Positions 36,601 through 62,904 of a stretch of DNA of 64,000 nucleotides are shown here, one piece after another. The stretch's first letter is position 1. Each line of letters starts with the position of its first letter. The stretch is from Candidatus Poribacteria bacterium (GTDB lineage: Bacteria > Poribacteria > WGA-4E > WGA-3G). The notes under the pieces are model-generated. The model was not told where the DNA came from. It saw only the letters and a list, made by a program, of their open reading frames with translations, and searched no databases. The translations under genes were made by a program, and so were the position numbers. The stretch spans positions 64,001 through 128,000 of the forward strand of contig CBDBFU010000002.1 of assembly GCA_965205025.1 (NCBI GenBank), read 5' to 3'.

Positions 36601-36947
36601 GAGGCAGGAATTGTGCCAAATCGCACCTCCATCTTATCACATCAGATTTGGGTTTTCTATCAATTGATACGCAGGTTGTACTTCATGGAAATCCCAATTT
36701 CTCTGGTGTATGCTTACCTATCCGCATGGAACCGGATGTATCTAAGATTGATCTGCCAGACCTCAAGAAACTTTCTATTTCTTCAATTAAGTTTGGTGGA
36801 GATTTCATAGAAGAGTAACTCACCCTCTTTTCCTTTTTCTGCTCAATATGCGTAAGTCCTGACAAATAATCCGCTAAAGTGCATCCGAAAATTGTATAAG
36901 TATAGCCTACGCGGAAATCATCTTGAAGAAACTGGCAAGAATAAACC

Positions 36948-38450: not shown

Positions 38451-38536
38451 GATGGTTATCAATTATCAGCAGTCAGCATATAGCATGGGATTCATAGAGG
38501 TTAAAAACCAACAACAAGAATAGTGATAACAAGAAT

Positions 38537-39946: not shown

Positions 39947-39952
39947 AATAAC

Positions 39953-41458: not shown

Positions 41459-41459
41459 A

Positions 41460-42887: not shown

Positions 42888-43081
42888 CTGCTATATGTTT
42901 TCAATTACCAATACCCTTTGATTCCGTATTTTTTTGAACTTTTAAGCAAAGAGTGTGTGTAACCCAATAAGTTGTATTGAAATCCAATGCATATCTAAGC
43001 ACTACAGATCGGAATTCGTAGTCACACAATATATTTGGATTGTCTTATACCTCAAAATTCTAACGCTTAAGGGGATTAAAA

Positions 43082-44683: not shown

Positions 44684-44786
44684 CAGATGCGTAAGTCAGC
44701 GCCTATTCTACGTATCAATGTTATAAGTACTTCAAAACTGAGAAAAAACATGCTAACAAAACTTAGTAAAGAGGTTCCACAAGAAC

Positions 44787-46238
44787 ATGTTATTATCGCT
44801 AATTCAAAAAGAGATTATGCATCATATTCTGAGTGTTCGGTTTGTAGCACTTCTCTTAATGTGTGTTTTACTTGTCCCGCTTACGCTCTCTATCAATTAT
44901 CAAAATTATCGCCAAAATCAGATAGACTATCAAGAAGCAGTCAAACGTGCTAACGCTGAAGCAAAAGAAAATCCACCAAATGCATTAGATCCTGACAAGG
45001 AAGTTTCCAAACTTTACCTCAAACCCACGCCATTAAGCGTATTCGCTAACGGGTTAGAAGAGGCACTGCCTACCTATCTTGGAATGACCCGTAATGGTGT
45101 AAAGCAAAGTTCAACAGAACTTACCCAGGCGAGACTTTCTTTTGCGCTGGGTAATCTTGATTTTCTATTTGTTGTTAGCACGGTGTTTAGTCTGCTCGCT
45201 TTGTTATTTACGTTTGATGCTGTTGCGGGGGAAAGGGAAACAGGAACGATACGAATTACCCTCGCAAATTCCCTCCCTCGCGACCGCTTCCTGTTAGGAA
45301 AGCTGATTGGCGGATATCTTGTGTTCGTTGTTCCATTTTTTGTATCGTTTTTATTTGGTTTGTTGTTGCTTGTTTGGCAAGGGTTTCCCTTGGGTGAACC
45401 TGATATCTTCCCCCGAGTAATGACTTTGACCCTTGCCGCATTGCTCTATATTGGGGTGTTTTTTGGGATAGGCACGGTTATTTCCACTTACTTAGACAGT
45501 GCCAAAACTGCGCTCATTGTCGCATTTACCGTCTGGGTGTTCACTGTACTGATCGCACCACGTGTTGGATTTCTTGGAGCGAAAATCATCGCACCCACCC
45601 GAACAGAGCAGAGTGTCTATATGGAAAAAGCATTACTACGACAGGACCTCTTGAAAGAAAAACAACAAAAATTAAATAATAAATTTTTTGAAACCCTTGG
45701 CGATGGTAGATTCAGTTTAACAGAGGATCTTAAAGAAAAAATGGATGAACTTAGGGTACCTCTTGAAGAGGAATACCGACAGAAATTTCAGGACCAGGTG
45801 AGCAAAATTGATCGGGAGTACCAACGCCAGCAGGACCGACAAGAACGGATGGGAGAGATGTTTTCCCGAATCACGCCAACATCTTCTTTAATCTATCTGG
45901 CAATGAACTTATCACAGACAGGAAAACTGAAAAGAAACACCTATTTTGATACAGGAAACCTTTATTACGATCAACTTGATGAAGAATATTTTAAGGATGT
46001 TTCAGATGACGCCCTCGCCATGGCGACAAATCTGTCAGATCGTATGACAGCTCGTATGAATCCTTTTGCAGTATCTTCTAATCAAGAAACAGAAAAAATT
46101 TCACCTGCCCCTGACCTAATAGAATCTTCATTATTTGACACATTGAGACATTCTATGTTAGATACATTTCTTCTCTGTGTTTTTGCTGTCGCACTCACAA
46201 CGGTAGCGTTTTTGAAATTCTTCAGGTTAGATATTTGA
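44787..46238 (+). CDS. ABC-2 type transporter permease, subfamily A
   Basis: MLLSLIQKEIMHH; LKPTPLSVFANG; FDAVAGERETGT; ends FFRLDI. Confidence 0.88.
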   Translation: MLLSLIQKEIMHHILSVRFVALLLMCVLLVPLTLSINYQNYRQNQIDYQEAVKRANAEAKENPPNALDPDKEVSKLYLKPTPLSVFANGLEEALPTYLGMTRNGVKQSSTELTQARLSFALGNLDFLFVVSTVFSLLALLFTFDAVAGERETGTIRITLANSLPRDRFLLGKLIGGYLVFVVPFFVSFLFGLLLLVWQGFPLGEPDIFPRVMTLTLAALLYIGVFFGIGTVISTYLDSAKTALIVAFTVWVFTVLIAPRVGFLGAKIIAPTRTEQSVYMEKALLRQDLLKEKQQKLNNKFFETLGDGRFSLTEDLKEKMDELRVPLEEEYRQKFQDQVSKIDREYQRQQDRQERMGEMFSRITPTSSLIYLAMNLSQTGKLKRNTYFDTGNLYYDQLDEEYFKDVSDDALAMATNLSDRMTARMNPFAVSSNQETEKISPAPDLIESSLFDTLRHSMLDTFLLCVFAVALTTVAFLKFFRLDI

Positions 46239-46315
46239 TACTGATAGACAAAATGAAGAATTTTACCCAGAATTGTGCTTGCGTCTCATGAAATCCTTGT
46301 TGTACTATTCTTTTC

Positions 46316-46342
46316 TGCAACTTTTCTGGTCAGAGTGTGTTA
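46316..46342 (+). promoter_or_regulatory. Putative ECF sigma promoter
   Basis: TGCAAC-N16-TGTT upstream of the secreted protein; recurring motif. Confidence 0.45.
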
Positions 46343-46430
46343 AAAACAATTAACAAAGGTTTGATGACACAAAAGTGTGCTTATAAACAGTGGTAGCACC
46401 TCAATAATTTACACTAACAAAGGAGACATT

Positions 46431-47225
46431 ATGAAACGGAAAATTGTTATGTCAATGTTCACATTTTTGATAATTATGGGATGTGTATTCTTTTTTGGGT
46501 CTCAAGCAAATTCTTTCACTTTCACATTCGGCGAAACGATGGAATTCAAGCAAATACCATCTGACCTCCCAGAAGAATATTCAGGACCGCAAACCGTGCA
46601 AGCATTGATGGATGTCTTTGATGCCGAGTACAATCGGGTCCATTTAAAGACCACGATACGTATATCTGCCGATGAACATAGCCAATCCAGCCAATTTACA
46701 AATAATGAGATAGAGGCACGATATCCGCGGGGCGAGTGGCTTAAAATCTTGTTGGACAAAGGTTTCACCATACAGAATTTCCGAAAATATGCATCCTGTC
46801 TAACGAAAAGGCATATTTTGGCGTTTCTGGAAGATAATCCAGATTTTTGGAAAACCGGGTTCCATGGTATGCCCCTATTTTCTGGTATGCCCGTGACGAA
46901 TGATTGGGAAACTTATAAAGCCGCTTATATTGATAAGTTGGTAAACAAACATCTCAAGAAGATTCGTGAAGCAGAACAGGTTGAACAAGCCAAAACACAA
47001 ACTGAACAAGCTAAAGCACAGGTTGAACGCGCCAAGGTGCTGGCTGAACAAGCAAAGAATAAGTTCAATTCACAACAACTTGAGAACGTTAGGAAGCAGA
47101 TTGAACACGCCAAGGAACAGATTGAGCGTTTACGCGAGACTTTAGAACGTCTTAATGAATCAATGCCTCCTCCCCAAAATCCAAAACAAAAGATGAAAAA
47201 GAAACCTCGCACTATTCAAATATAG
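46431..47225 (+). CDS. Secreted protein with an unnamed domain (shared with the ECF sigma extension) and a coiled-coil tail
   Basis: AAGGAG RBS; signal peptide; YSGPQTVQALM...YPRGEWL...DWETYKAAY; EQAK heptad repeats. Confidence 0.8.
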   Translation: MKRKIVMSMFTFLIIMGCVFFFGSQANSFTFTFGETMEFKQIPSDLPEEYSGPQTVQALMDVFDAEYNRVHLKTTIRISADEHSQSSQFTNNEIEARYPRGEWLKILLDKGFTIQNFRKYASCLTKRHILAFLEDNPDFWKTGFHGMPLFSGMPVTNDWETYKAAYIDKLVNKHLKKIREAEQVEQAKTQTEQAKAQVERAKVLAEQAKNKFNSQQLENVRKQIEHAKEQIERLRETLERLNESMPPPQNPKQKMKKKPRTIQI

Positions 47226-47387
47226 CATAACGTTATAGACGTTGTGTCTATTTTGTATTCATTAATATAAATAAAACTTGCACATCTAACGTATTTGCTG
47301 GCATAGTTGTTATAACCGCCCTGCAAAAAAGAGGTTTTGTGTGAGTCATGAGGGGTTGTTTTTGCCATCATATATAGAGAATGCTAA

Positions 47388-47545
47388 ATATTACTAACGC
47401 TAATTCGTAAAGAGATGATGCATCATATTCTGAGCGTCCGCTTCGTCGCGCTCCTTGTGATGTGTCTCCTTCTCGTCCCGCTCACACTTTCTACAAATTA
47501 CCGAAATTATCGACAGAACTTAGTAGATTACTAAGAAACCGTCCT
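47388..47545 (+). pseudogene. 5' remnant of a subfamily A permease
   Basis: Start codon is ATA instead of ATG; reads LLTLIRKEMMHHILSVRF...RQNLVDY, then TAA where paralogs have CAA. Confidence 0.85.
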
Positions 47546-47563
47546 ATACTTTAAGGAGTCGTT

Positions 47564-49039
47564 ATGCTACGAACAATTATTAGACAAGAACTTTTGGCAT
47601 ACCTGATGAGCGCAAGGTTTTTTGCTGCTGTCATCATTACGCTCCTGCTTGTTGTTGCGAATGCTGTCGTTCTTCTTGAAGATTATGAACGCCGATTGGA
47701 GAGATATAGTCATCAAGAAAATGTGCATCGCGAGAAAGCACAAGAAGCAAAAACTTATTCATTTCTAAAACTTTATGTTGAACGTCCTCCTAATCCCTTA
47801 GGTCTCTTTAGTGCTGGATTGGACAAACGACTTGGGGGAACCCTTGAAATTTATCACGGTTCCGTCCCGATGATTTCAAATGCTTCAGCGCGTAGCCTTG
47901 ATAATCCATTTCTAAACCTCTTTTCAAAGATTGATCTCGTCTTTATTTTCCAAGTAGTGCTAAGTTTAATAGCACTGCTTTTTGCTTACGATGCCATAGC
48001 AGGTGATCGGGAAACAGGCACCTTGCGTTTGGTTATATCACATCCAGTGAGGCGTGGAAACATTTTGTTTGCAAAATATATTAGTGCCATGGTTTGCCTA
48101 CTACTCCCCGTGCTTATGAGTCTGTTGATGGTTATGTTTCTGTTATCTATTACCGGTTCAATTCAACTGGACGGGCAGGATTATGTTCGGATAGGTGGAA
48201 TAGTGTTGACAACAAGTATTTATCTTTCTGTATTTTACCTAATTGGACTGCTGATTTCTACGACGACGCGCCGCACAGCCACCTCCCTGATGCTCTGTAT
48301 GTTTGTATGGGTCGTTTTGGTTCTCGTTTATCCGAACTGGAGTCGGTTTACTATCAATCCAGTGGGTGATATGCAAGCAGTAAGAACATCTACTGAAGAA
48401 CATGTGAATCAGATTTGGGAAGAGGTTGACAGAGAAGAACAGCGATTTGTTGCAAATAGCCCACTTGAGGAAGACCCTCCGTGGTTTAATTTGAGTTACC
48501 ATGAACAGGGGCGCAACTACGGAGATCGTCGACAAATGCTTACATCCAAAGTAAAAGAGAAATCTGAGCATTTAGTTCCTCACGTTCAAAGATACCATGA
48601 AACGATGGAAACTTTACGTATCCGTTTGGCAGAACAAACCGCTTTAATACAAAAACAGTCTTTAGATAAAACGACCTTGCGAGAGGCGAAATGGCATGAA
48701 CACCTGATGAAACTCAGTCCGGCAGGTTTATATACGTTTGCAGCTTCCGCGTGGGCGGGTACCGATTTGGATGGAATGTTTGATTATGTTGACACTGCGC
48801 AGCAGTATCGACGTTCCCTCATAGACTATTTACATGAAAAAAACGCATTCGGCAGCCGGCAATGGTTCGACACGAGCAAAGGTGAAGTAGATTGGTGGGA
48901 TTTACCGCAGTTCCGCTATGAGCAGGCAGACGTTTGGGAGAACGCAACGCGAGCATTCCCCGAGTTGTTTTTGTTGCTACTCATCAATACGGTTTTGTTC
49001 ACAGTGGCATTTCTGCTTTTTGTCAAAATTGAAGTTTAG
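47564..49039 (+). CDS. ABC-2 type transporter permease, subfamily B
   Basis: RPPNPLGLFSAG; AGDRETGTLRL; SAWAGTD; ends FVKIEV. Confidence 0.88.
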   Translation: MLRTIIRQELLAYLMSARFFAAVIITLLLVVANAVVLLEDYERRLERYSHQENVHREKAQEAKTYSFLKLYVERPPNPLGLFSAGLDKRLGGTLEIYHGSVPMISNASARSLDNPFLNLFSKIDLVFIFQVVLSLIALLFAYDAIAGDRETGTLRLVISHPVRRGNILFAKYISAMVCLLLPVLMSLLMVMFLLSITGSIQLDGQDYVRIGGIVLTTSIYLSVFYLIGLLISTTTRRTATSLMLCMFVWVVLVLVYPNWSRFTINPVGDMQAVRTSTEEHVNQIWEEVDREEQRFVANSPLEEDPPWFNLSYHEQGRNYGDRRQMLTSKVKEKSEHLVPHVQRYHETMETLRIRLAEQTALIQKQSLDKTTLREAKWHEHLMKLSPAGLYTFAASAWAGTDLDGMFDYVDTAQQYRRSLIDYLHEKNAFGSRQWFDTSKGEVDWWDLPQFRYEQADVWENATRAFPELFLLLLINTVLFTVAFLLFVKIEV

Positions 49040-49157
49040 CTGAATACGTAGTTTGCGTAGGTTGAATAGAACGTAGTGAATCCTATAAATGTTAATTTAG
49101 TACCTGAATTACATACTCACCTTAACTAAACAATCAGCATTCTAAGGGAGAAGATGA

Positions 49158-50693
49158 ATGATATTACATATTATCAAACGAGAACTCTTCGACCACATCA
49201 ATAGCCTACGATTTGTCTTAACGACGGCAATACTTATAATCTTAATGTTTACCAACGCCTGGGTACATATAAACACACACCCCGATAAGGTGCGTAAATA
49301 TTCCAATAATATTACCAAATCTCTTGATGACTTGAAATCCCGAACAGAGTTGTACACGCTGATACGAAAGGGACCAGGCAATCTCTACAAAAGTCCGTCT
49401 TCGCTTTCTTTCATCGCCGATGGAGATGATGCTTATTTACCGAGTAACATATACAGTCCTGGGTCTTGGTCGAAATCCGGTATTGGTGGTAGAGTAAGAA
49501 GCAATTGGTGGTTAAGTTATGTCAGCGTGAATCCTGATGCGAAAGACCTCCGTCCACAAGCAACAAAGATAGATTGGGTATTTGTTATCACCTACCTACT
49601 CTCTCTTATCCCGCTCTTGTTTACATTTGACTCGTTTTCCGGTGAACGCGAACGAGGCACTCTACGCTTGTGTCTGGCAAACCCAATTTCGCGTCCTACT
49701 TTATTAGTCGGTAAATTCTTAGGAAGCTTGATAGCCATTCTCATTCCTTTTGTTTTTGCTGTGTTGCTGAATCTTGCAGTGATTTCCGCAGATAGTTGGA
49801 CACAACTGAATGCTATGGACTGGGGACGTTTGGGAATAATCCTGCTCATTGCAGTAAGTTACGCTGGAATCTTCATTGGATTGGGTTTAATGATTTCAGC
49901 GGGTACACGAGAACCTCGACTCAGTTTGATCGTTGTCCTGTTGATTTGGGTAACAGTTGTGGTTTTTGTTCCCTCAACACTTGGAACACTTTCCACAAAA
50001 TGGATGCCGACTCTACAAACAAACGATCAATTTCAAGCCGAGAAAAAATTAGCAATTGACGAGAATAACGCAGACTATAATGAGAAAATAAAGAAAGTCA
50101 AGGAGCAGAAACTTTCTGGTGCGCAAAGTAAACTTCAGCAACTGGCGAAAATGCCTCGCGAAAATGTCTCCCCTGAAGATATTAAAGCCGCTCAAGAAGA
50201 ATATAATTCAATTTGGCAGAAAGATGGAAATGAAGAATTACAAATCAAGTCAGATTTTGTTAAAAAAGATGTTGAAATCCGAGAACAGTTTAACCGCTCC
50301 CATTTAGACGCACAAACCGCTCAGATTCGGAGTGCAAGAGCAGCAACCCGGTTTTCTCCTGCAGCGATTGTCCAATACGCGCTTGAATCCATGGCAGGCA
50401 CCGGTTTTAATCGGCACTTACAATTCTTAGACAACGTGTATCTTTACAAGAAACAATTTCGGCAATTTATTGCTGATACTGATAGAGCAGACAACGAAAG
50501 TCTACACCTTATCGGTATCCCTGAAGGTATGTCTAAGAAGACGGTAACGATTGAGGCAATTCCTAAATTTGAGGACAAAATCACCTTCAAGGATACGTTC
50601 AACTCCGCGACTTTGGATCTGTTATTACTCGTCCTACTTCTCGTGATATTTTTTTCAGGAGCGTTCCTCGTCTTTTTACGCACCGAGGTCTGA
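49158..50693 (+). CDS. ABC-2 type transporter permease, subfamily C
   Basis: MILHIIKRELFDHINSLRF; GPGNLYK; ESMAGTGFNRH; ends FLRTEV. Confidence 0.88.
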   Translation: MILHIIKRELFDHINSLRFVLTTAILIILMFTNAWVHINTHPDKVRKYSNNITKSLDDLKSRTELYTLIRKGPGNLYKSPSSLSFIADGDDAYLPSNIYSPGSWSKSGIGGRVRSNWWLSYVSVNPDAKDLRPQATKIDWVFVITYLLSLIPLLFTFDSFSGERERGTLRLCLANPISRPTLLVGKFLGSLIAILIPFVFAVLLNLAVISADSWTQLNAMDWGRLGIILLIAVSYAGIFIGLGLMISAGTREPRLSLIVVLLIWVTVVVFVPSTLGTLSTKWMPTLQTNDQFQAEKKLAIDENNADYNEKIKKVKEQKLSGAQSKLQQLAKMPRENVSPEDIKAAQEEYNSIWQKDGNEELQIKSDFVKKDVEIREQFNRSHLDAQTAQIRSARAATRFSPAAIVQYALESMAGTGFNRHLQFLDNVYLYKKQFRQFIADTDRADNESLHLIGIPEGMSKKTVTIEAIPKFEDKITFKDTFNSATLDLLLLVLLLVIFFSGAFLVFLRTEV

Positions 50694-50730
50694 TTTTACT
50701 GAAATTAGCCACAGGAGTCAATTGAACGGC

Positions 50731-50759
50731 TTGGTAGGTTCGATTTCCTAACCGAACCG
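50731..50759 (+). repeat. GTAG-type REP-like repeat
   Basis: TTGGTAGGTTCGATTTCCTAACCGAACCG, the inverse of 34449-34477 with one mismatch; partial relative at 54613. Confidence 0.75.
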
Positions 50760-50922
50760 GACTTAGTTGAGTTCCTAATCATGGCACTTGTTTTTACGGA
50801 ATTATTTGTAATACGCTGAAAATCAAGGATTTTCATGAATGATCTGGAACGATTAGGAAACTGCTCCTACCGTAGTGTAAAACAATTAATAGAGATGCAC
50901 AAACTGACAAAAGGAATATATT

Positions 50923-51395
50923 ATGAAAAAACATACACTCGTTATTATTCTGATTATTGTTTTCCTGATTGTTGCATGGGTTAGCAGCACTATGATCACG
51001 ATCACCGATGAGATTAATATCGTGGATAGAATAACACATAATCACTACAAAGTTGATCCGAAAGGCCAGTTAATCGGTTAATGCGGAGATTGGCGAGGTT
51101 TCTGTTGAGGAATCAGATCATCACGTGTCTGATATTGATATTGATATCAAAAAGGAATGGAAATCAGGTATGCTGTTTCAACCGAAGTCAAAACGATGGA
51201 TTAAGGATATGCTCAAAGATTTAGAAGTCAAAATCATACGGGACCCACCCAGATGTACGGATTGACGTTAAATTCAAACGCGGAAAGCGACGTTGGAAAA
51301 GGGGATTAAAATGGTTGACGGTTAACATTCAGCTTAGAGTACCGCGTCAATATAAGGTCGTTTCAAAATGCCATGTCCAAGTGAGAGTTTGTATA
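50923..51395 (+). pseudogene. Frameshifted, truncated exported protein resembling the DUF4097 (adhesin-like) N-terminus
   Basis: AAGGA RBS; MKKHTLVIILIIVFLIVAW...YKVDPKGQL, then in shifted frames VNAEIGEVSVEES and LTVNIQLRVPRQY; ends at a MITE terminus. Confidence 0.55.
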
Positions 51396-51460
51396 AATAA
51401 CGTGAGTTTGATAAACGATATCCACGGACAAAGTGGCTTCAACTGATTTTGGAGATAGGA

Positions 51461-51562
51461 GAGACATTCCGTCAATCTCTTGTAGATATACTCCTGCTCT
51501 GCTTCTTTGCGGTCGTGTTGACAACTGTGTCATTTCTGAGATTTTTCCGTTCTGATATTTGA
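51461..51562 (+). pseudogene. 3' remnant of a subfamily A permease
   Basis: Reads ETFRQSLVDILLLCFFAVVLTTVSFLRFFRSDI*, matching the paralog C-termini. Confidence 0.85.
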
Positions 51563-51616
51563 CACAACAAATTGTGATAAACCGTAGCATATCCAAAACG
51601 CTTGGCGTGAAATAGA

Positions 51617-51642
51617 TGCAACTTTTACCAGAGTCATTTGTA
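51617..51642 (+). promoter_or_regulatory. Putative ECF sigma promoter
   Basis: TGCAAC-N16-TGTA upstream of permease 51715. Confidence 0.45.
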
Positions 51643-51714
51643 GTAAGTGTTGAAAACAATCCTATCGCATGAGATCACACAAATTAGATAAATGCAAAAT
51701 AAAGGAAATTCAAC

Positions 51715-53132
51715 ATGTTAATGACACTGATTCGGAAAGAGATGATGCATCATATCCTGAGCGTTCGTTTTGTCGCATTGCTTTTGATGTGTCTCTTGCT
51801 TGTTCCTCTTACTCTGCACATTAATTACCGCACTTACCTACAAAACCAGATAAATTACCAGGAATCAGTCAAACTTTCTGGAGCAGAAGATGAGGAAAAG
51901 CCACCAGATACCCCCGCCCCGGGACTTGGAAGTTTCTAAACTCTTTCTTGAACCGACGCCTTTAAGCGTGTTTGCGAAAGGTTTAGAGGAATCCCTTCCG
52001 AGTTATCTTGGCATGACACGCAATGGGGTAAAACAAGGTTCAACTTCAACCGCAGATGCGCCTCTCTCCTCAGCTTTGGGAAACCTTGATTTTCTGTTTG
52101 TCGCCAGTACTGTCTTTAGTCTGCTGGCACTATTATTTACGTTTGATGCTGTCGCCGGTGAAAGAGAAGCAGGCACACTTCGGATTACCTTGGCAAACGC
52201 TCTCTCCCGCGATCTATTTTTGTGGAGCAAACTGATTGGTGGATACATTGTTTTCGTTGTTCCGTTCCTTGTATCGTTTCTCTTAGGTTTGCTCCTAATT
52301 GTCTCACAAGGATTTCCTTTGGGCGAGTCTGACATTTTTTCTACGCGTGCTCAGTTTGACTTTAGTTTCGTTGCTCTACATAGGTGTATTTTTTGCAATA
52401 GGAACAGTAATTTCTACTTTTTTAGATAATTCCAAGACAGCACTCATTGTCGCCTTTACAGTGTGGGTGCTTGCAGTATTAATTACGCCACGCGTTGGAT
52501 TTCTAACCGCTAAACTCATTGCACCGACACGCGCTGTGCAAAGCGTCTATATGGAAAAAAACTGCAATTCGGAAACAATCTCAATAAAGAAAAGGATGCA
52601 ATAGTCGTGAAAAAAATTATTGAAACTTTGGGAACTTCATTTGACTTTAATAAGAATGCCACTAAAAATCGCTGAAATCAGAAAACCGATTGATGCCGAA
52701 TATCGACAGAAATTTCAGGAACAGGTTGAAAAAGTGGAACGCGAGTATGAACGTGAAAAAAAGCGACAAGAATCGGTAGGAGAAACCATTTCACGAATCA
52801 CACCGACGTCTTCGCTCACATATCTCGTCATGAATTTAGCAGAGACCGGAAGAATCAAAAGAAACACCTATTTTCAAACAGGCACTCTTTATTATAACCA
52901 ACTTGAGGATGAGTATTTTAGTGAAATTGCAGATGACCAGTTTGCAGCAATAATGCGATTCACATCAAGTCAACCTTCCGAATCGAAAAAAATCGCTCCA
53001 CCGCCAGACATTATAGAAACCTCTTTATCAGAAACCCTTCGCCACTCCGTCACAGATCTACTCTTGCTCTGCTTCTTAGCCGTTGTGTTGACAACTGTGG
53101 CGTTTCTGAAATTCTTCCGTGTTGATATTTGA
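51715..53132 (+). pseudogene. Subfamily A permease with several frameshifts
   Basis: ORFs 51715..51939, 51890..52429, 52299..52604 and 52620..53132 tile one full-length paralog; breaks lie near C, T and A homopolymers. Confidence 0.85.
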
Positions 53133-53330
53133 AATAGTAGACTATTGTATGCCAACAAAACTAACCGCACAGGACATTTTTCTGATTTTTTATGAAAGAA
53201 TTATCTCAATAACAAGTGTCGGGACCGTGGATTGATGGATACGGTTAGAAGTCTCACTTACCAGGAAATTACGTAAGTCCTAAATATAAATTGAAGGTTT
53301 CTATCTCGATTTTACAATTTTCTCAAGTTA

Positions 53331-53357
53331 TGCAACTTTTTTACTTCAAATTGTGTC
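53331..53357 (+). promoter_or_regulatory. Putative autoregulatory ECF promoter
   Basis: TGCAAC-N17-TGTC, ~40 nt upstream of the ECF sigma start; degenerate copy at 54673 before a sigma remnant. Confidence 0.55.
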
Positions 53358-53394
53358 ATGTATATCGTAAGTCCATTTATTGTGGAGAACTTTG

Positions 53395-54513
53395 ATGATA
53401 AAAGACGATATTGAACTCATTAACAATACTTTGTCCGGCGACGATACAGCTTTCAATTCTTTAGTTGAAAAACACCAGAAGAATATCCACGCTCTCGCGT
53501 GGCAGAAAATAGGGGATTTTCACATTGCCGAAGAAATTACCCAAGATGTTTTCCTACTGGCATATAATAACCTGTCTACACTAAAAGACCCAAATAAGTT
53601 TGACAGATGGATATATGTAATTACGAAGCGACTTTGTACAAACTGGATCGAAAGGAAAAAACCGTCAATGCTATCCTTAGACGCCGCCGATAAAGCAACC
53701 TTGGACAAATCCGCTTTAGCACATTATGTTGCAGAACAACATGAGAAAGAGGCAACTGAGCATTACCGAGAAGTTGTGAATAATCTATTGGAAAAATTAT
53801 CTGATAAAGAACGTACGGTGATAGTACTCTATTACCTTCGTGAAATGTCATACAAAGAAATTAGCAAATTTCTGAATGTGTCTATCAGTGCGATTAAGAG
53901 TAGACTCAGCCGTGCCAGACAACGTTTGAAGGAGGAAGAACTGATGATTTGTGAAACTCTTGGCAGCATCCAGCCACCTATTGACTTAACCGATCATATA
54001 TTTTGTGATAGCATGGAATTCAAAGCGAACACACCATATTTTCAAGACGAGCATACAGAGTATACAGGGCCGCAAACTGTGAAAGCATTGATGAATGCCT
54101 TTGACACCGAGTTTGACAGTTGTATTACAAAAATCAAAGTGGGTATAATTGGAGGCAAATCAAGCAGTCTCACAATTAATGAGATAATTAATGAGATAGA
54201 TAAACGATATCCACGGACAAAGTGGCTTCAACTGATTTTGGAGAATGGACTTACCATAGAAAACTTTATGCATTATGCATCTTGTTTGTCTAAACGGCAT
54301 ATTTTGGCTTTTTTAGAAGACAACCCAGACTTTCAAAAAGTAAACTTTTTCGGTATACCCCCCATTCAAGATGACTGGGAAAAGTATAAAATAGCTTTTG
54401 TCAGAGATGTTATTGCCAGTGAGAAAATGGTTAGAGAACAAGATGGACAAAAGCATAAAGACGAGGTTGCAGACTCCGCATTAAAAAGGGCATTGGAACA
54501 TTGGAACGTTTAA
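53395..54513 (+). CDS. ECF sigma-70 factor with a C-terminal extension
   Basis: Region 2 (AEEITQDVF...FDRWIY.I) and region 4 (MSYKEIS..L.VS...IKSRLSRAR); extension begins YTGPQTVKALM. Confidence 0.9.
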   Translation: MIKDDIELINNTLSGDDTAFNSLVEKHQKNIHALAWQKIGDFHIAEEITQDVFLLAYNNLSTLKDPNKFDRWIYVITKRLCTNWIERKKPSMLSLDAADKATLDKSALAHYVAEQHEKEATEHYREVVNNLLEKLSDKERTVIVLYYLREMSYKEISKFLNVSISAIKSRLSRARQRLKEEELMICETLGSIQPPIDLTDHIFCDSMEFKANTPYFQDEHTEYTGPQTVKALMNAFDTEFDSCITKIKVGIIGGKSSSLTINEIINEIDKRYPRTKWLQLILENGLTIENFMHYASCLSKRHILAFLEDNPDFQKVNFFGIPPIQDDWEKYKIAFVRDVIASEKMVREQDGQKHKDEVADSALKRALEHWNV

Positions 54514-54739
54514 AATCTTGTCCGTAGCAGCTTGAGTTATTTCAATAGCACCCGCAAGTACAAGTTTTGTAAATCATGAGGGTAGTTATACCAAATTAAC
54601 ACGATTCGTCTCGGTAGGTGCGGTTTCCTGGGGATGGTCGAGTATTTATTATATGAAAATAAAATCTCAATTATGCACGTTTTTTATCTTTAAATTGTGT
54701 CATGTATTATCGTAAACATTTCGATTGTGGAGTAGACTC

Positions 54740-54793
54740 ATGAATAAAACAGATGTTGAACTTATTAACAGTATCCTATCAGGGGATAATTAG
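54740..54793 (+). pseudogene. 5' remnant of a second ECF sigma gene with its upstream region
   Basis: MNKTDVELINSILSGDN* versus MIKDDIELINNTLSGDD; upstream 54671-54739 resembles 53328-53394. Confidence 0.7.
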
Positions 54794-54848
54794 GCTTAAG
54801 ATAAATCCAGTTAATTTGGTACTATACCTGATATTTGGAGAATGCAAA

Positions 54849-55322
54849 ATGCTACTAACGCTAATTCGAAAAGAGATAATGCATCATATTCTGAGCATTC
54901 GATTTATTGTACTGCTTTTGATGTGTCTTTCACTTGTCCTACTCACCTTTTCCATTAATTATCAAAATTACCGTCAGAACCTCGTTGACTATCAAGAAGC
55001 TGTCAAACTTGCCAACACCGAAAAAGCTAAAGTTAACACGAACATGGAACTGAAACCGGAGTTGGAAAATCCACAACTCTTTCTGAAACCAACACCGCTG
55101 AGCGTGTTCGCTAACGATTTAGGAGATGCACTACCGAGCTATCTTGGTATGACACGCAACGGCATCACACAAGGACCACTTGCACTGGTTTCCGCTTCAC
55201 TTTCCTATCTTTTGGGACATCTTGACTTTCTTTTTCTTATCGGCACTGTTTTCAGTTTGCTCGCGATCTTGTTTACTTTTGATGCCGTAAGTAAATTTTT
55301 TCGGTATACCCGTTCAAGATGA
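54849..55322 (+). pseudogene. Truncated subfamily A permease
   Basis: Closely matches the first ~145 aa of 58174..59595 up to FTFDAV, then switches into ECF-extension-derived sequence. Confidence 0.85.
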
Positions 55323-55431
55323 CTGGAACAAATACCAAACGAATTTTCTCAATAGGATTATTGCCAATGAGAAAATGGTTAGAGAACAAGAGAAACAGAG
55401 GCATAAAGATAAGGGAACTGCAGACTCCGCA
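55291..55431 (+). pseudogene. 3' remnant of an ECF sigma extension
   Basis: Homologous to 54340-54480 (TTTTTCGGTATACC..TTCAAGATGACTGG..GAGAAAATGGTTAGAGAACAAGA..TGCAGACTCCGCA). Confidence 0.8.
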
Positions 55432-55486
55432 ACATAATGACTGAGAAAATAAAATTATGGTAATCCTGATATATGGAGAATGCTAA

Positions 55487-56905
55487 ATGTTGCTACCACT
55501 AATTCGAAAAGAGATGATGCATCATATCCTGAGCGTTCGATTTATTGTACTGCTTCTGATGTGTCTTTTGCTTGTTCCACTAACCCTTTCTATCAATTAT
55601 CAAAATTACCTCCAAAATCTTGTTGACTATCAAGAAGCGGTTAAACTGGCAAATATTGAAGAGAAGACAGTAAACCCCAAGATGCCGCTGGAACCGGATA
55701 TTGAGGTTTCTAAACTCTTTCTCAAACCGACACCTTTGAGTGTATTTGCAAAAGGATTAGGAGACGCGCTGCCAAGTTACCTTGGCATGTCCCGTAATGG
55801 GATTATTCAAGGAGTTTCAACTTTGGTTTCGGATTCGCTTCCCTATCTTTTCGGACATCTCGACTTTCTTTTTCTTGTAGGCACTGTTTTCAGTTTGCTC
55901 GCGCTGCTATTTACCTTTGATGTAGTTGCCGGAGAACGAGAAGCGGGTACCCTTCGGATCACCTTGGCAAATTCTCTGCCGCGTGACCTTTTTCTGTGGA
56001 GTAAATTAATTGGCGGATATATAGTGTTTGTAGTGCCGTTTTTGGTATCCTTTCTATTCGGCTTATTGGTACTTGTTTGGCAAGGTTTTCCCCTCGGTGA
56101 ACCCGAAATTTTTCCACTAGTGATCAGTCTAACCCTTGTCTCGCTGCTCTATATTGCTGTCTTCTTTGCGATAGGTACAGTCATTTCAACCTACTTAGAT
56201 AATTCCAAGACTGCCCTCATCATAGCCTTTACGGTTTGGGTATTTGCTGTACTAATTACACCACGTGTTGGGTTTATCGCGGCAAAAATCATCGCCCCGA
56301 CACAAACTTTACAGAGTGTCTATCTGAATAAAACGGCTCTCCGTGAGAATTTCAACGCAGAACTTGAAGAGAAAAAAAGGGAAATATACAAAGAACTCTG
56401 GCAGAATCGTCGGCAACCTTCCTATGAAGAACAGGGGGAAATCGGAGAACAGGTGGATGAACAGATGAAACCTCTCGAAGAGAAATTTCGGCAGAAATTC
56501 AAAGAGCACGCTGATGAAATAGATCGAAACTATCAGCGTGAAAAGAAGCACCAAGAACAGGTAGGTGAAACGCTTTCACGAATCACACCGATATCCTCCC
56601 TAACCTATCTCGCTACAAATTTAACACAGACTGGAAAACGAAAGAGAAACGATTACTTTCAAGCAGGTGAGCATTACTATGATGCGCTTGATACGGATGT
56701 GTTCAGTAAAATTATAGATCATGCTGAGATAAGAATGTTCCATCCAAAGACCGACATCGTCAAAATCAGGCAGCCATCATTTTTGGAAACCCCAACCTTA
56801 AGAGAGACATTCCGTCAATCGGTGGTGGATGTCCTGCTGCTCTGCTTTTTTGCGGTCATATTGACAACTGTGGCGTTTCTGAAATTCTTCCGTTCGGATA
56901 TTTGA
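55487..56905 (+). CDS. ABC-2 type transporter permease, subfamily A
   Basis: MLLPLIRKEMMHH; AGEREAGTLRITLAN; ends FFRSDI. Confidence 0.88.
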   Translation: MLLPLIRKEMMHHILSVRFIVLLLMCLLLVPLTLSINYQNYLQNLVDYQEAVKLANIEEKTVNPKMPLEPDIEVSKLFLKPTPLSVFAKGLGDALPSYLGMSRNGIIQGVSTLVSDSLPYLFGHLDFLFLVGTVFSLLALLFTFDVVAGEREAGTLRITLANSLPRDLFLWSKLIGGYIVFVVPFLVSFLFGLLVLVWQGFPLGEPEIFPLVISLTLVSLLYIAVFFAIGTVISTYLDNSKTALIIAFTVWVFAVLITPRVGFIAAKIIAPTQTLQSVYLNKTALRENFNAELEEKKREIYKELWQNRRQPSYEEQGEIGEQVDEQMKPLEEKFRQKFKEHADEIDRNYQREKKHQEQVGETLSRITPISSLTYLATNLTQTGKRKRNDYFQAGEHYYDALDTDVFSKIIDHAEIRMFHPKTDIVKIRQPSFLETPTLRETFRQSVVDVLLLCFFAVILTTVAFLKFFRSDI

Positions 56906-56977
56906 TACTGATAGACAAATTGAAGAATTTTCCCAGAATTGAGCTTGCTTCTCATGATACCTTTGTTGTACTTTTTC

Positions 56978-57003
56978 TGCAACTTTTCTGGAAAGATTGT
57001 GTA
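56978..57003 (+). promoter_or_regulatory. Putative ECF sigma promoter
   Basis: TGCAAC-N16-TGTA upstream of secreted protein 57090. Confidence 0.45.
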
Positions 57004-57089
57004 AAACAATTAACAAAGGTTTGATGGCACAAAAGTGTGCTTATAAGCGGAGATAGCACTCAATAATTTACACTAACAAAGGAGACATT

Positions 57090-58013
57090 ATGAACGGTAA
57101 AATCACTATGCGGATACTTTCACTTTTGACAGTTCTGGGTATAACTATCTTTTTTGGATCGGAAGCGAACTCAGAAACACCAGAGAATACAGAAGGGTAC
57201 GGTTTGATTGAAAAGACAGAAATAACGAACAATTCTGGAAAGTTCAGTTTAAGTGAAATGACAAAATTAACGAAAGGCACACTAAGTACCATTAAAGACT
57301 ATACTGGGCCGCAAACCGCGCAAGCATTGATAGAAACGTTTGATAATATTTACAATCACAACCATTTAAAAACCACAGTGGCAGTGATTGTATACCGTAA
57401 AACCGACAGTGGAACTATTCTAAAAAACGGAAAAAGACATGTCAGCCAGTTTACAAACGAAGAAATTGACACACGATATCCGAAAGCAGCATGGCTTCAG
57501 CTTCTTTTAGACAACGGTATAACCATAGAAAATTTCGGAGATTATACATCTTATCTGTCAAAGCGATACACTTTGGCTTTTCTGAAAGACAATCCTAGTC
57601 TTCGCAACCCTGGGATGATCCACATTCCACCAACAGATAATTGGGAAGCTTATAAAGCCGCTTTTCATAATTGGGAAGCTTATAAAGCCGCTTTTATCTA
57701 TAAGTTGGTAAACAGACATATTAAGAAGATACAGGAAGCAGCAGAACGGGCTGAACGGAGAAAAGAACAGGGTGAACAGGGTAAGGAACAAGTTAAACAA
57801 GTAATGGCAGAGATTGAACGTGCTAAAGCGCAATTTGAACGAGCCAAGGAACAAATTGAACGGGCAAAGAATAAGTTCAATTCACAACAACTTGAAAACG
57901 TTAGGAAACAGATTGAACACTTACGAGAGACCTTAGAACGTCTTAAAGAATCAATGCCTTCTCAGAATCCAAAACAAAAGATGAAAAAGAAACCTCGCAC
58001 TATCCAGATATAG
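57090..58013 (+). CDS. Secreted protein, paralog of 46431..47225
   Basis: Signal peptide; YTGPQTAQALI...YPKAAWLQLLL; shared tail AKNKFNSQQLENVRKQIEH...KQKMKKKPRTIQI. Confidence 0.8.
   Translation: MNGKITMRILSLLTVLGITIFFGSEANSETPENTEGYGLIEKTEITNNSGKFSLSEMTKLTKGTLSTIKDYTGPQTAQALIETFDNIYNHNHLKTTVAVIVYRKTDSGTILKNGKRHVSQFTNEEIDTRYPKAAWLQLLLDNGITIENFGDYTSYLSKRYTLAFLKDNPSLRNPGMIHIPPTDNWEAYKAAFHNWEAYKAAFIYKLVNRHIKKIQEAAERAERRKEQGEQGKEQVKQVMAEIERAKAQFERAKEQIERAKNKFNSQQLENVRKQIEHLRETLERLKESMPSQNPKQKMKKKPRTIQI
57637..57695 (+). repeat. 30-bp in-frame tandem duplication
   Basis: ATAATTGGGAAGCTTATAAAGCCGCTTTT twice (NWEAYKAAF x2). Confidence 0.9.
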
Positions 58014-58173
58014 TATAATGCCATAGACCTTTACGGACGACTCTGTATTCATTAATATTAATAAAACTTGCACACCTAACGTATTTGCTTGTTTAGTTGT
58101 TATAACCGCCCTGCAATACAGGTTTTGTGAGTCAGGAAGGGTTGTTTTTGCCATCATATATGGAGAATGCTAA

Positions 58174-59595
58174 ATGTTACTAACGCTAATTCGTAAAGAG
58201 ATGATGCATCATATCCTGAGCATTCGGTTTATCGTCCTACTTTTGATGTGTCTGTTACTTGTCCCACTCACCCTTTCCATTAATTATCAAAATTACCGTC
58301 AGAACCTTGTTGACTATCAAGAAACTGTCAAACTTGCCAACACCGAAGAAAACAAAGTTAACACAAACATGGAACTGAAACCGGAGTTGGAAGTTTCAAA
58401 ACTTTTTCTGAAACCAACACCGCTGAGCGTGTTTGCTAACGGATTAGGCGATGCGCTGCCGAGTTATCTTGGTATGACACGCAACGGCATAACACAAGGA
58501 CCCCCTGCGTTGGTTTCCGCTTCACTCTCCTATCTTTTGGGACATCTTGACTTTCTTTTTCTTATCGGCACTGTTTTCAGTTTGCTCGCGCTCCTGTTTA
58601 CTTTTGATGCCGTTGCAGGTGAAAGGGAAGCTGGAACACTCCGGATAACTTTGGCAAATTCCTTGCCACGCGACCTGTTTTTGTGGAGCAAATTGATCGG
58701 TGGATACATTGTGTTCGTTATCCCATTTTTAGTGTCACTCCTATTCGGTTTGCTGTTATTAGTTGCGCAAGGATTCCCGTTGGGTGAGTCGGAGATTTTC
58801 CCTCGAGTCCTCAGTCTTACACTTGTCTCTTTAATCTACATTGCAGTCTTTTTTGCGATAGGCACGGTGATTTCAACCTACATAGACAATTCTAAGACAG
58901 CACTCATCGTCGCGTTTGCCGTATGGGTATTTGCTGTACTAATTACACCACGTGTTGGATTTATCGTGGCAAAAATCATCGTACCGACACAAACTTTACA
59001 GAGTATCTATCTGGAAAAGACAGTCGCCCGCGAGAATATCAATGCAGAAAAGAAAGGAAAGAGGGATAAGATACATGAAGAGGTTTGGAAGGGACACTCT
59101 CACTCTCAAAGTTCTTTTGAAGAACAGATCGCATTGGGACAAGAGATTGATAAACAAATGGAACCGATTCATGAGGAATTTCGACAGAAATTCAATGACA
59201 GTGTTGACGAGATAGACCGACGATATGAACGTGAACAAGCAAGACAAGAAGGCGTAACTGAAACACTATCCCGCATTTCACCGACATCCTCTCTCATTTA
59301 TCTCACTACAAACTTGACACAGACCGGAAAAACGAAAAGGAAAAACTACTTTCAAGCTGGGGAACGCTACTATGTTGCGCTTGATGAAGATTGGTTTAGT
59401 AAAGTCGTAGACAATCTCTCCTTTAGAACGATGGATCCAAAGAAAAACATCCAAATTACGCAGCCACCTCCTTTGGAAACTCCAACCTTAGTTGACACAT
59501 TTCGTCAATCCTTAGTAGATGTACTGATGCTCTGTTTCTTTTCGGTTGTGTTGACAACTGTGGCGTTTCTGAAATTCTTCCGTGTTGATATTTGA
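58174..59595 (+). CDS. ABC-2 type transporter permease, subfamily A
   Basis: MLLTLIRKEMMHH; FDAVAGEREAGT; ends FFRVDI. Confidence 0.88.
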   Translation: MLLTLIRKEMMHHILSIRFIVLLLMCLLLVPLTLSINYQNYRQNLVDYQETVKLANTEENKVNTNMELKPELEVSKLFLKPTPLSVFANGLGDALPSYLGMTRNGITQGPPALVSASLSYLLGHLDFLFLIGTVFSLLALLFTFDAVAGEREAGTLRITLANSLPRDLFLWSKLIGGYIVFVIPFLVSLLFGLLLLVAQGFPLGESEIFPRVLSLTLVSLIYIAVFFAIGTVISTYIDNSKTALIVAFAVWVFAVLITPRVGFIVAKIIVPTQTLQSIYLEKTVARENINAEKKGKRDKIHEEVWKGHSHSQSSFEEQIALGQEIDKQMEPIHEEFRQKFNDSVDEIDRRYEREQARQEGVTETLSRISPTSSLIYLTTNLTQTGKTKRKNYFQAGERYYVALDEDWFSKVVDNLSFRTMDPKKNIQITQPPPLETPTLVDTFRQSLVDVLMLCFFSVVLTTVAFLKFFRVDI

Positions 59596-59727
59596 AATAG
59601 AAGACTATTGTATGCCAACAAAACTAACCGTACAGGACATTTTTCTGATTTTTTTTGAAAGAATTATCTCAATAACAAGTGTCGGTATCGTGGATTGTTT
59701 AAGGACAGACCACATCATTAAAATTAA

Positions 59728-59756
59728 TGCAACCTTTATACCATAAAACGCGTCTA
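59728..59756 (+). promoter_or_regulatory. Putative ECF sigma promoter for the ATPase-NEW3-TolC operon
   Basis: TGCAAC-N17-CGTCTA, the canonical ECF AAC...CGT arrangement. Confidence 0.55.
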
Positions 59757-59819
59757 AGCAACATAAGTTCATGTTGCTTGAATATCCAGAATAGAACACA
59801 AGATTACAAGGAGTACCAG

Positions 59820-60554
59820 ATGTTAGAAACGCGCGAACTAACTAAAGTCTATAACGAGGAAGTTTTAGCTGTCAATAAACTAAACCTAAAAGTCGAAGAT
59901 GGGGAAATCTATGTTGTTCTGGGAGCAAACGGGGCAGGCAAAAGCACAACTATATCCATGTTATTGAATTTCATTGAACCCACAAGCGGTACTGCACTGG
60001 TGGGTGACATTGAAATCCCTAAGTTCCCATTGGAAGCAAAAAAACATCTCGCTTATGTTTCTGAAAACGTTGAACTCTACAGGAATTTTACTGCGCGTCA
60101 GAACTTATCCTTTTTCGCTAAATTAGGCGGTAAAAAGAAGGTCTCAAACGATGAGTTGGATGCTACACTCGAAAGAGTTGGATTACCTAAAGAAGCATTT
60201 ACGAGACGAGTAAAGACATTTTCAAAGGGAATGCGTCAACGTCTTGGAATCGCAATTGCCATTATGAAAGACGCACAAGCTGTATTGCTTGATGAGCCAA
60301 CTTCCGGACTTGATCCTAAAGGTGGCGCGGATTTCCTGAATCTATTGCGTGAATTAAAAGAGGAAGGGAAAGCTATCTTTATGTCTACCCACGATATTTT
60401 CCGTGCGAAAGAAATTGCGGATAGAATTGGAATTCTTGTACAGGGAAATCTTGAACAAGAATTATCCAGAGATGAAATCCAAGATGCTGATCTGGAAGCA
60501 CTATATCTGCATTATGTGGCTGGATATGAACCATCAGAAGACCCCAGTCCGTAA
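59820..60554 (+). CDS. ABC transporter ATP-binding protein (ABC-2/DrrA-like)
   Basis: GANGAGKST, FSKGMRQR, LLDEPTSGLD and STH motifs; AAGGAG RBS. Confidence 0.95.
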   Translation: MLETRELTKVYNEEVLAVNKLNLKVEDGEIYVVLGANGAGKSTTISMLLNFIEPTSGTALVGDIEIPKFPLEAKKHLAYVSENVELYRNFTARQNLSFFAKLGGKKKVSNDELDATLERVGLPKEAFTRRVKTFSKGMRQRLGIAIAIMKDAQAVLLDEPTSGLDPKGGADFLNLLRELKEEGKAIFMSTHDIFRAKEIADRIGILVQGNLEQELSRDEIQDADLEALYLHYVAGYEPSEDPSP

Positions 60555-62862: not shown

Positions 62863-62904
62863 AGTCTGAGCGTTGACAACTATTCCCAAAAAATGGAGAT
62901 AGAA

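Follow-up and report, generated by a model that had tools for sequence, protein, structure and literature searches.

Three genes that share one unnamed domain were found in a 64-kb window of Candidatus Poribacteria DNA (contig CBDBFU010000002.1, positions 64,001-128,000; "the window" denotes this whole stretch, and window coordinates count from its first nucleotide). Poribacteria are a sponge-associated, uncultured phylum. One of the genes encodes P0002, an extracytoplasmic function (ECF) sigma factor that carries the domain as a C-terminal extension. The other two encode the stand-alone proteins P0001 and P0003, whose N-termini resemble signal peptides. All three are embedded in an array of ATP-binding cassette (ABC) permease genes of the ABC-2 type. 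The domain, about 145 aa long and common to P0001, P0002, and P0003, is given the working name DOM, and the fusion protein P0002 and its orthologues are referred to as sigma-DOM. The positions of the features are compiled in Table 1.

Table 1. Features of the window that bear on the DOM genes and the permease array
Feature	Position	Strand	Remarks
Array of ABC-2 (ABC2_membrane_2/DUF3526) permease genes on one strand, DOM genes embedded	35182..59595	+	
533-aa exported protein with C-terminal AhpC/TSA thioredoxin-like domain	43082..44683	+	
TGCAAC-N14-TGTGT	46316..46340	+	Upstream of P0001
P0001, stand-alone DOM protein, 264 aa	46431..47225	+	Signal-peptide-like N-terminus, DOM at about residues 29-175, charged helical tail
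Scar: 22 sigma-DOM-type DOM codons in frame with the last 33 permease codons	51401..51562	+	82% identity
TGCAAC-N15-TGTGT	53331..53356	+	39 nt 5' of the sigma-DOM start
Sigma-DOM gene (P0002), 372 aa	53395..54513	+	Core 1-181, linker 182-202, DOM 203-345, tail 346-372
Sigma region 2, P0002 residues 23-89	53461..53661	+	PF04542, E 2e-10
Sigma region 4, P0002 residues 128-180	53776..53934	+	PF08281, E 6e-16; PF04545, E 4e-15
Linker EELMICETLGSIQPPIDLTDHI	53938..54000	+	Homologue of the stretch that connects sigma4 with the membrane helix in sigma-TM paralogues
DOM of P0002, alpha/beta, without export signal	54001..54429	+	AlphaFold2 model; no Foldseek, PDB, or Pfam match
Scar: promoter-like block, then 17 codons from the start of a second sigma gene and a stop	54671..54793	+	
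Scar: permease 5' fragment, residues 1-148	54849..55292	+	90.5% identity with the permease at 58174-59595
Scar: 3' end of a sigma-DOM-type gene (DOM residues 116-145, tail, stop)	55291..55437	+	Repeat D13
TGCAAC-N14-TGTGT	56978..57002	+	Upstream of P0003
P0003, stand-alone DOM protein of a second subfamily, 307 aa	57090..58013	+	10-residue internal duplication, residues 184-202
Array end: ABC ATPase (59727-60554), NPCBM_assoc protein (60403-62862), TolC-like outer membrane protein (from 62893)	59727..63999	+	

P0002 is an ECF (group 4) sigma-70 factor, as evident from scores above the cut-offs for PF04542, PF08281, PF04545, and PF07638. The Pfam domains Sigma70_r2 and Sigma70_r4_2 were assigned to residues 23-89 and 128-178, respectively, and the sigma70-ECF model TIGR02937 was matched with 93.5 bits (cut-off 42.9). 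The best NCBIfam rows for the core were SigW-type and, at 112 bits, far under their cut-offs (209). Sigma region 4 (sigma4) is followed by an extension of ~190 aa, which was kept in 34 aligned orthologues and in 17 of 17 genomic copies; its terminal tail is helical and poorly conserved. Membrane helices were judged by the Kyte-Doolittle mean over 19 residues (KD19). No such helix was present in P0002, in which KD19 reached a maximum of 0.86. Neither a zinc-finger anti-sigma domain, nor a SnoaL domain (at E up to 1), nor tetratricopeptide repeats (TPR) were detected in P0002 with Pfam, and the DOM model described below is alpha/beta and not a helical repeat. Between the sigma-DOM gene and the flanking permease genes of the window, no open reading frame (ORF) of at least 30 aa qualified as an anti-sigma candidate. 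A permease was the next labelled downstream gene in 14 of the 17 genomic sigma-DOM copies, where unlabelled small ORFs were not scanned with anti-sigma profiles.

A three-way alignment of P0001, P0002, and P0003 contained 55 invariant columns, which hold the motifs YxGPQT, RYP..WL, TI.NF, LAFL.DNP, and WE.YK. Residues 203-366 of P0002 were 44% identical to residues 33-201 of P0001, far beyond chance (BLASTP E = 3e-43). No Pfam or NCBIfam family covered DOM, a Pfam scan of 101 single DOM sequences gave nothing below E 0.0097, and the best match in a sequence-profile search of the PDB had an E of 0.58. Modeling by AlphaFold2 from a 101-sequence alignment resulted in a confident alpha/beta structure, with a predicted local distance difference test (pLDDT) of 89.2 and a predicted template-modeling score (pTM) of 0.85. 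When this model was compared by Foldseek with the PDB, no match was obtained at E ≤ 0.001 (best E 2.0, template-modeling score at most 0.26). The best E against BFVD was 0.67, a search for look-alikes in the ESM Atlas with both DOM versions gave no usable match, and no NTF2-like chain was among the Foldseek matches listed. DOM is a domain without named family or known fold within Pfam, NCBIfam, PDB, BFVD, and ESM Atlas.

An earlier note, made from the letters of the window, had claimed that one motif is common to a sigma factor extension and two secreted proteins, that this extension has no obvious transmembrane (TM) segment, and that the domain is unnamed. It had further stated that the domain occurs in exported stand-alone form beside permeases and, without export signal, on the sigma factor, that no anti-sigma gene lies nearby, and that a TGCAAC element is present. 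All of this was borne out by the results above and, for the element, by those given below.

P0001, which carries a conserved C-terminal KKKPRTIQI, belongs to the sister subfamily of the fused DOM. By sequence reading, the putative signal peptides of P0001 and P0003 consist of a basic N-terminus, a hydrophobic stretch, and an ANS-type site. Their tails are long, charged, and helical, forming a putative coiled coil according to composition and weak matches to coiled-coil families in Pfam and NCBIfam. An assignment of P0001 as a lipoprotein (IMGC) was dropped; the cysteine is missing from P0003 and most relatives. Past the helical tail, the C-termini of stand-alone DOM proteins bear a conserved basic motif, PQxPNxNMKKxSxYPPL or KKKPRTIQI (for example at window 47196-47222 and 57984-58010), which is absent in sigma-DOM and suggests a sorting or docking signal. 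The duplication in P0003 is direct and affects the last conserved DOM motif (NWEAYKAAFH NWEAYKAAF, window 57639-57695).

More distant DOM relatives amounted to 186 cluster representatives at E ≤ 1e-3. Some of them (examples among P0133, P0143, P0146, P0128, P0141, and P0224) are proteins of ~430-660 aa. Their hydrophobic N-terminal segment is followed by a W..W.DEQT region, then by DOM, and finally by a long, conserved C-terminal portion that matched nothing in Pfam. A word-index search with P0143 returned nine relatives.

Distribution and origin of the sigma-DOM fusion

A database search with the DOM of P0002 returned 88 proteins at cluster level, 27 of them with sigma Pfam domains. Full-length proteins of 351-512 aa, 71-95% identical over DOM, accounted for 26 of these 27, and P0090 was truncated (228 aa). 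The non-sigma matches were stand-alone proteins (221-315 aa, 42-51% identity), and the named database matches of DOM all came from Poribacteria. In addition, 71 related genomic loci from 54 isolates were collected, every one from a Candidatus Poribacteria metagenome-assembled genome. They contained 17 distinct sigma-DOM genes in 14 of the 54 isolates, the window not included. Because the loci represent the best 80 of 123 matches, absence of sigma-DOM from the remaining isolates cannot be claimed. The isolates were assembled independently, and several copies reside on contigs of ~5 Mb listed as chromosomes. A membrane helix was found in none of the 17 genomic and none of the 27 database sigma-DOM proteins (P0002, P0004-P0029; KD19 at most 1.64).

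In the DOM tree (quick search, 147 columns), in which support was given by the Shimodaira-Hasegawa-like approximate likelihood ratio test (SH-aLRT), the fused DOMs formed one clade with a single change (17 rows, SH-aLRT 100). This clade was sister to that of the P0001-type exported proteins (support 88). The sigma cores of sigma-DOM likewise constituted one clade in the sigma-core tree (17 rows, SH-aLRT 94). The sigma-DOM fusion was acquired once.

The ratio of nonsynonymous to synonymous substitution rates (dN/dS) was estimated by the pairwise NG86 method for the 17 sigma-DOM genes. It was 0.24 for the sigma core, 0.13-0.15 for the linker, 0.40-0.41 for DOM, and 0.70-0.73 for the tail. Constraint within the gene was strongest in the linker, which is near-invariant across the 34 orthologues, and the core DOM motifs were all invariant in the same set. 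Exported DOMs had values of 0.25 (P0001 type) and 0.42 (P0003 type). As its value lies within this range, the fused DOM is about as constrained as its exported relatives, and it is under purifying selection in the fusion. The dS of the DOM part (0.17-0.27) was about half that of the sigma part (0.45-0.49) in the same sigma-DOM genes (window and L001-L015), and exported DOM paralogues had low dS as well; gene conversion, codon constraint, or exchange between lineages are possible causes.

Both partners of the fusion could be traced. Residues 3-202 of P0002, linker included, aligned with residues 4-205 of a sigma-TM-BNR protein. Proteins of this type are ~995 aa long, and in them an ECF sigma factor is followed by the same linker, a single TM helix, and a propeller of the BNR/sortilin/Ycf48-like kind. 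Homology to P0001 began at residue 203 of P0002, equivalent to residue 33 of P0001 and a few residues past the likely cleavage site. Since the two alignments meet at 202/203, the junction was deduced to connect the juxtamembrane linker of a tethered sigma factor with the mature part of an exported P0001-type DOM. The recombination deleted both hydrophobic segments, the membrane helix and the signal peptide.

The sigma family concerned is modular. It forms a Poribacteria-specific clade (SH-aLRT 100 against plain ECFs) with five types of C-terminal module, i.e. sigma-TM-BNR, sigma-TM-other (441-454 aa), a sigma factor with a beta/gamma-crystallin-like segment and without TM helix, sigma-DOM, and sigma-TM-DOM. 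In the sigma-core tree each type required one change, with support of 62 for sigma-TM-BNR and 98-99 for the other types besides sigma-DOM; the sigma-TM-BNR rows fell into two groups within an unresolved polytomy. Sigma-TM-DOM comprised 20 clusters, and in 20 of 20 a TM helix lay near residue 222 (KD19 1.72-2.24). Its DOM was 62% identical to P0089-type exported proteins, the segment preceding DOM included, and its sigma core grouped with the sigma-TM-other clade (99). Because both its DOM source and its sigma clade are different, sigma-TM-DOM was deduced to be an independent fusion. DOM has thus joined this sigma family twice, once per side of the membrane.

Sigma-TM-BNR proteins of ~985-1005 aa are encoded, for example, at L021:11918-14905, L044:10977-13937, and in 24 further loci. 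The anchor-less proteins with a beta/gamma-crystallin-like segment (262-284 aa) were found at L008:12754-13608, L019:19219-20073, L020:12449-13303, and L004:5171-5959; this segment matched Pfam Crystall with an E of 5.5e-5, under the cut-off.

Traces of recombination also surround the gene. Three chimeric scars were counted in the window, the permease 5' fragment and the sigma-DOM 3' end adjoining it being taken as one (54849-55437). This permease fragment sits between two sigma-DOM fragments, and it is one of two broken permease genes in the array, the other being located at 51715-53132. The permease array is an active recombination zone. An alternative offered in the earlier note, that sigma genes and genes for secreted proteins are being shuffled into each other, agrees with the junction, the second fusion, and the scars as an account of the origin of sigma-DOM. 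As a reason to dismiss the fusion it failed, given the purifying selection and the occurrence in at least 14 genomes.

The same surroundings could point to an assembly chimera, a recent one-off recombinant, or a pseudogene in a repeat-rich region. In the 5 kb around the gene lie the broken permeases and the three sigma-DOM/permease scars, and odd derivatives occur elsewhere, such as P0004 (512 aa) with two tandem copies of DOM and P0018 (448 aa), in which sigma-DOM runs into a fragment of a thioredoxin-like protein. Such an origin is contradicted by the same ORF and junction in 14 independently assembled isolates and 27 protein clusters, by the purifying selection, and by the conservation of the upstream region, in which a ribosome-binding site is present. 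Conservation and selection together led us to reject an artifact or pseudogene as extremely improbable. The fusion is not a one-off event either, a possibility raised in the earlier note, since it is present in 14 of 54 isolates and in 27 clusters. The other outcome named there as contrary, a match of DOM to a characterised family, was not observed in the libraries searched. Sigma-DOM is a genuine, conserved, soluble Poribacteria ECF sigma factor with a DOM extension. One locus (L006:1332-2900) contains two sigma-DOM genes, one of them encoding 522 aa.

DOM genes of the permease array and their upstream element

About a dozen ABC-2 permease genes make up the array of the window; their products match PF12679 and in many cases also DUF3526. 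In the window and the 71 loci, 84 distinct stand-alone DOM genes were found, 76 of which encode a hydrophobic N-terminal segment. A permease gene was located directly 5' of 58 of the 84 and another DOM gene 5' of nine. A sigma gene, mostly of the ~990-aa sigma-TM-BNR type, directly followed 17 of them on the 3' side.

A subclade of stand-alone DOM proteins has no hydrophobic N-terminal segment (L052:1908-2606, L057:9887-10486, L068:4434-5171, L044:6457-7140, L070:9938-10642, and L041:633-1277). L055:9953-10705 encodes a further protein of this kind, possibly a truncated one. These proteins keep DOM and the helical tail and are present in seven isolates. In L052 and L057, a clean in-frame deletion has removed the segment, and in the others the N-terminal sequence is replaced or missing; close relatives in L069, L067, and L071 keep the hydrophobic segment. 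Genes for ~990-aa sigma-TM-BNR proteins were found nearby in all loci long enough (all but L070). In this subclade, DOM may have moved to the cytoplasm a second time.

A strongly conserved block with TTATGCA(A/C)C and TGT(A/G)TCATGTAT was found in the 150 nt that precede 16 sigma-DOM starts. The pattern TGCAAC-N13-16-TGTRT occurred three times in the window, exactly before P0001, P0002, and P0003, and 0.44 occurrences were expected; 2 of 100 shuffles reached three. A scan of the window and the 71 loci (1.28 Mb) yielded 49 distinct matches, without exception on the gene strand. Of these, 45 lay 47-336 nt 5' of a labelled ORF, namely 20 before DOM genes, 12 before thioredoxin-like genes, eight before sigma-DOM, and five before permeases. 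The thioredoxin-like genes are orthologues, in 12 related loci, of the one in the window and have the same element. A stricter pattern (TGCAMC-N14-20-TGTRTCA) matched the sigma-DOM site only, and the 9-mer TTATGCAMC with one mismatch was not enriched (25 matches, 31.5 expected). The element is made up of a -35-like box and a short downstream box, an arrangement that we take to resemble ECF promoters. It would be the promoter recognized by the sigma factor of sigma-DOM.

Two cysteines of P0002 were noted. Cys186 in the linker (window 53950-53952) is invariant in the 34 orthologues and replaced by serine in the single sigma-TM-BNR paralogue used for comparison. Within DOM, Cys297 (window 54283-54285) is otherwise found only in the P0001-type clade. 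With a thioredoxin-like gene bearing the same promoter motif, a thiol switch at Cys186/Cys297 would be conceivable, conservation being its one support.

Comparison with known extensions and possible role of DOM

ECF sigma factors that bear extensions are viewed as "one-component systems" among sigma factors, and to our knowledge only a handful of extension types (SnoaL, TPR, Cys-rich) is understood. C-terminal extensions are described as the second commonest mode of ECF regulation, found in 19 of 157 groups and accompanied by a lack of anti-sigma factors (PMC7826278, PMC8999054), and sigma cores with the same type of extension as co-clustering (PMC5766207, PMC7826278). Sigma-DOM shares with this class a conserved extension of more than 50 aa after sigma4, the lack of an adjoining anti-sigma gene among the ORFs examined, and cores that co-cluster. 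ECF sigma factors with fused extensions are already known as a kind.

Like ECF41 (Mycobacterium tuberculosis SigJ, SnoaL_2), sigma-DOM is soluble, combines sigma2 and sigma4 with a folded domain of ~100-150 aa, and has no anti-sigma factor (PMC5766207, PMC7826278). In contrast to ECF41, its domain is not SnoaL/NTF2-like, so that the SnoaL-like domain by which ECF41, ECF56, ECF294, and ECF295 are recognized is absent. Furthermore, the crystal structure of ECF41 shows a compact body of sigma2, sigma4, and extension, whereas no packing was seen in the AlphaFold2 model of sigma-DOM, and only the sigma-DOM extension has exported paralogues in the same locus. With ECF42 (TPR) and ECF57 (WD40-like), both thought to be activated by protein interaction, sigma-DOM shares a probable partner-binding extension and a conserved, related neighbor. 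In the case of ECF42, the neighbor is YCII-related and also occurs in fusion with other ECFs (PMC8999054). The sigma-DOM extension has another fold and contains no TPR; moreover, neighbor and extension are different domains in ECF42, whereas the neighbors of sigma-DOM carry DOM itself in exported form.

The order of sigma factor, linker, TM helix, and sensor in IutY (ECF243) and ECF48/52/53 (SCO4117) is shared by the sigma-TM-DOM and sigma-TM-BNR proteins of Poribacteria. Such hybrids of sigma and anti-sigma factor with a membrane helix are released by regulated proteolysis (PMC8999054). Sigma-DOM has the core and the linker of its Poribacteria counterparts and differs from the hybrids in having no TM helix. 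With the helix lost and the sensor-type domain predicted to lie in the cytoplasm, it cannot be released from the membrane by proteolysis. The extension of ECF01-Gob contains a TM region and WD40 repeats, and its layout would resemble that of the ~995-aa sigma-TM-beta-propeller paralogues; sigma-DOM has neither TM helix nor propeller. ECF01-Gob, from Planctomycetes, is listed among the ECF groups with an extra C-terminal domain (PMC5766207). ECF264 is likewise defined by an uncharacterised fused domain, DUF1835 (PMC7826278), from which DOM differs in having no Pfam entry. No report on sigma-DOM was found in open-access full text, and the available part of PMC6081418 contained no mention of the protein. 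New is an extension without family or fold that comes from an exported family of the same locus and coexists with a membrane-tethered sister architecture.

We favor the explanation, with confidence and doubt in about equal parts, that sigma-DOM is an autoregulated soluble ECF sigma factor with a regulatory extension, DOM sensing a ligand or binding a partner. Recombination joined the linker of a sigma-linker-TM-sensor protein to the mature part of a Sec-exported P0001-type DOM. The sigma-DOM gene would be autoregulated from a TGCAAC-N15/16-TGTRT promoter, and its product would drive those DOM and thioredoxin-like genes in the ABC-2 array that bear the same kind of element. The cytoplasmic DOM could stand in for the missing anti-sigma factor as an on-board regulator that binds a small ligand or a partner protein tied to the transporter array. 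The signal would be passed to sigma2/sigma4 via the invariant linker, as in the extensions of ECF41, ECF42, and ECF238. A functional link between DOM and sigma factors is indicated by the independent sigma-TM-DOM fusion with its 20 clusters and by the sigma genes following 17 of the 84 DOM genes.

Several findings weigh against this explanation. The AlphaFold2 model of full-length P0002 had a pTM of 0.43 and pLDDT values below 50 for the linker (residues 182-200) and the sigma2-sigma4 loop (residues 89-117). Docking of DOM on the sigma factor was not predicted, and the model contained no confident inter-domain packing. DOM is less constrained than the sigma part (0.41 versus 0.24; in six matched genomes 0.47 versus 0.23). 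The fused clade has a long stem (0.78 changes per site), compatible with adaptation and equally with selection having been relaxed for a time. In many loci of isolates from which no sigma-DOM was retrieved, DOM and thioredoxin-like genes are likewise preceded by the TGCAAC element; it may thus be read by paralogous sigma factors, and sigma-DOM is not required to account for it. Finally, the three chimeric scars mean that some fusions in this window are plainly junk. A predicted complex of the sigma core (1-181) with linker and DOM (182-345) scored 0.00 in a run without controls and is evidence neither way. The earlier note had inferred a regulatory module in which the same domain works in the cytoplasm on the sigma factor and outside the membrane beside the permeases. 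The unnamed domain was indeed found in both settings, and the part of the claim that concerns action on the sigma factor was not supported by the low-confidence full-length model.

The main rival to regulation by DOM is that the domain is a passenger. Loss of the anchor would have freed the sigma factor from proteolytic control, its activity would be set by transcription through autoregulation, and DOM, neither sensing nor regulating anything, would be retained for folding well and for stabilizing or solubilizing the protein. This is consistent with the missing contact between DOM and sigma core in the AlphaFold2 model, with a dN/dS of DOM about twice that of the sigma part and a tail near neutrality (0.70-0.73), and with the tolerance of the sigma family for very different C-terminal modules, including the TM-less beta/gamma-crystallin-like one. 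Regulation by transcription only is known for some ECFs (PMC8999054). On the other hand, the core motifs of DOM are invariant in the 34 orthologues, its dN/dS of 0.41 is like that of the presumably functional exported paralogues, and no part of the gene is more constrained than the linker. If the appendage of 145 aa were useless, its loss would be expected in at least a few of the 14 genomes; it is retained in 17 of 17 intact copies, and DOM was joined to the sigma family twice independently. We regard a mere passenger as possible and rather doubtful.

A variant of regulation by DOM is tethering. The cytoplasmic DOM would hold the sigma factor on a partner, for example the cytoplasmic face of the permease/ATPase complex or a DOM protein without signal peptide; it would replace the lost helix, and transporter flux would release the sigma factor. 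In line with this, a permease gene directly precedes 58 of the 84 stand-alone DOM genes and directly follows 14 of the 17 sigma-DOM genes, and the ancestor of sigma-DOM was membrane-tethered. DOM proteins without signal peptide are encoded in seven isolates, and in most of the loci concerned sigma-TM-BNR genes lie next to their genes; extensions of the ECF42 type are thought to work via partner proteins (PMC8999054). However, both large soluble regions of the 58174-59595 permease were read by eye from its hydrophobic segments as periplasmic, which would place the natural partner surface of an exported DOM on the wrong side. Moreover, among the loci retrieved, the isolates with sigma-DOM and those with DOM proteins lacking a signal peptide do not overlap. 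Tethering was thus considered improbable.

A more far-reaching version of the favored explanation, which we put forward as speculative and unlikely to hold in full, is that DOM is a new sensor domain in three topologies, exported, sigma-tethered, and cytoplasmic. Within the cell, sigma-DOM would sense the very ligand that its paralogues encounter on the outside (ABC-2 exporter cargo, for example), and one recombination would have turned a proteolysis-dependent surface-signaling sigma factor into a soluble one-component sigma factor. If true, this would be a natural move of a sensor domain across the membrane with its signaling role kept.

The evolutionary intermediates survive in related genomes as exported DOM, sigma-TM-DOM, and the anchor-less fusion, which makes the conversion of an anti-sigma-dependent into a self-contained sigma factor directly testable. 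The shared promoter motif and the sigma family offer a first handle on how Poribacteria regulate their large arrays of ABC-2 permeases.

Other features of the window

Window positions 21624-30954 encode a ResIII helicase, an N6_N4 DNA methylase, an AAA_15/AAA_21 plus DUF4435 ATPase, a HEPN RiboL-PSP protein, and an AAA_31 protein. This stretch is probably a defense/restriction island, and it is flanked by DNA of low GC content (0.32 at 20-22 kb and 0.34 at 30-32 kb). On the minus strand, positions 7376-18358 encode a protein of 3660 aa with many bacterial Ig-like domains (Big_13, Big_3_2, Big_5, FlgD_ig, and others), which is probably a surface adhesin.

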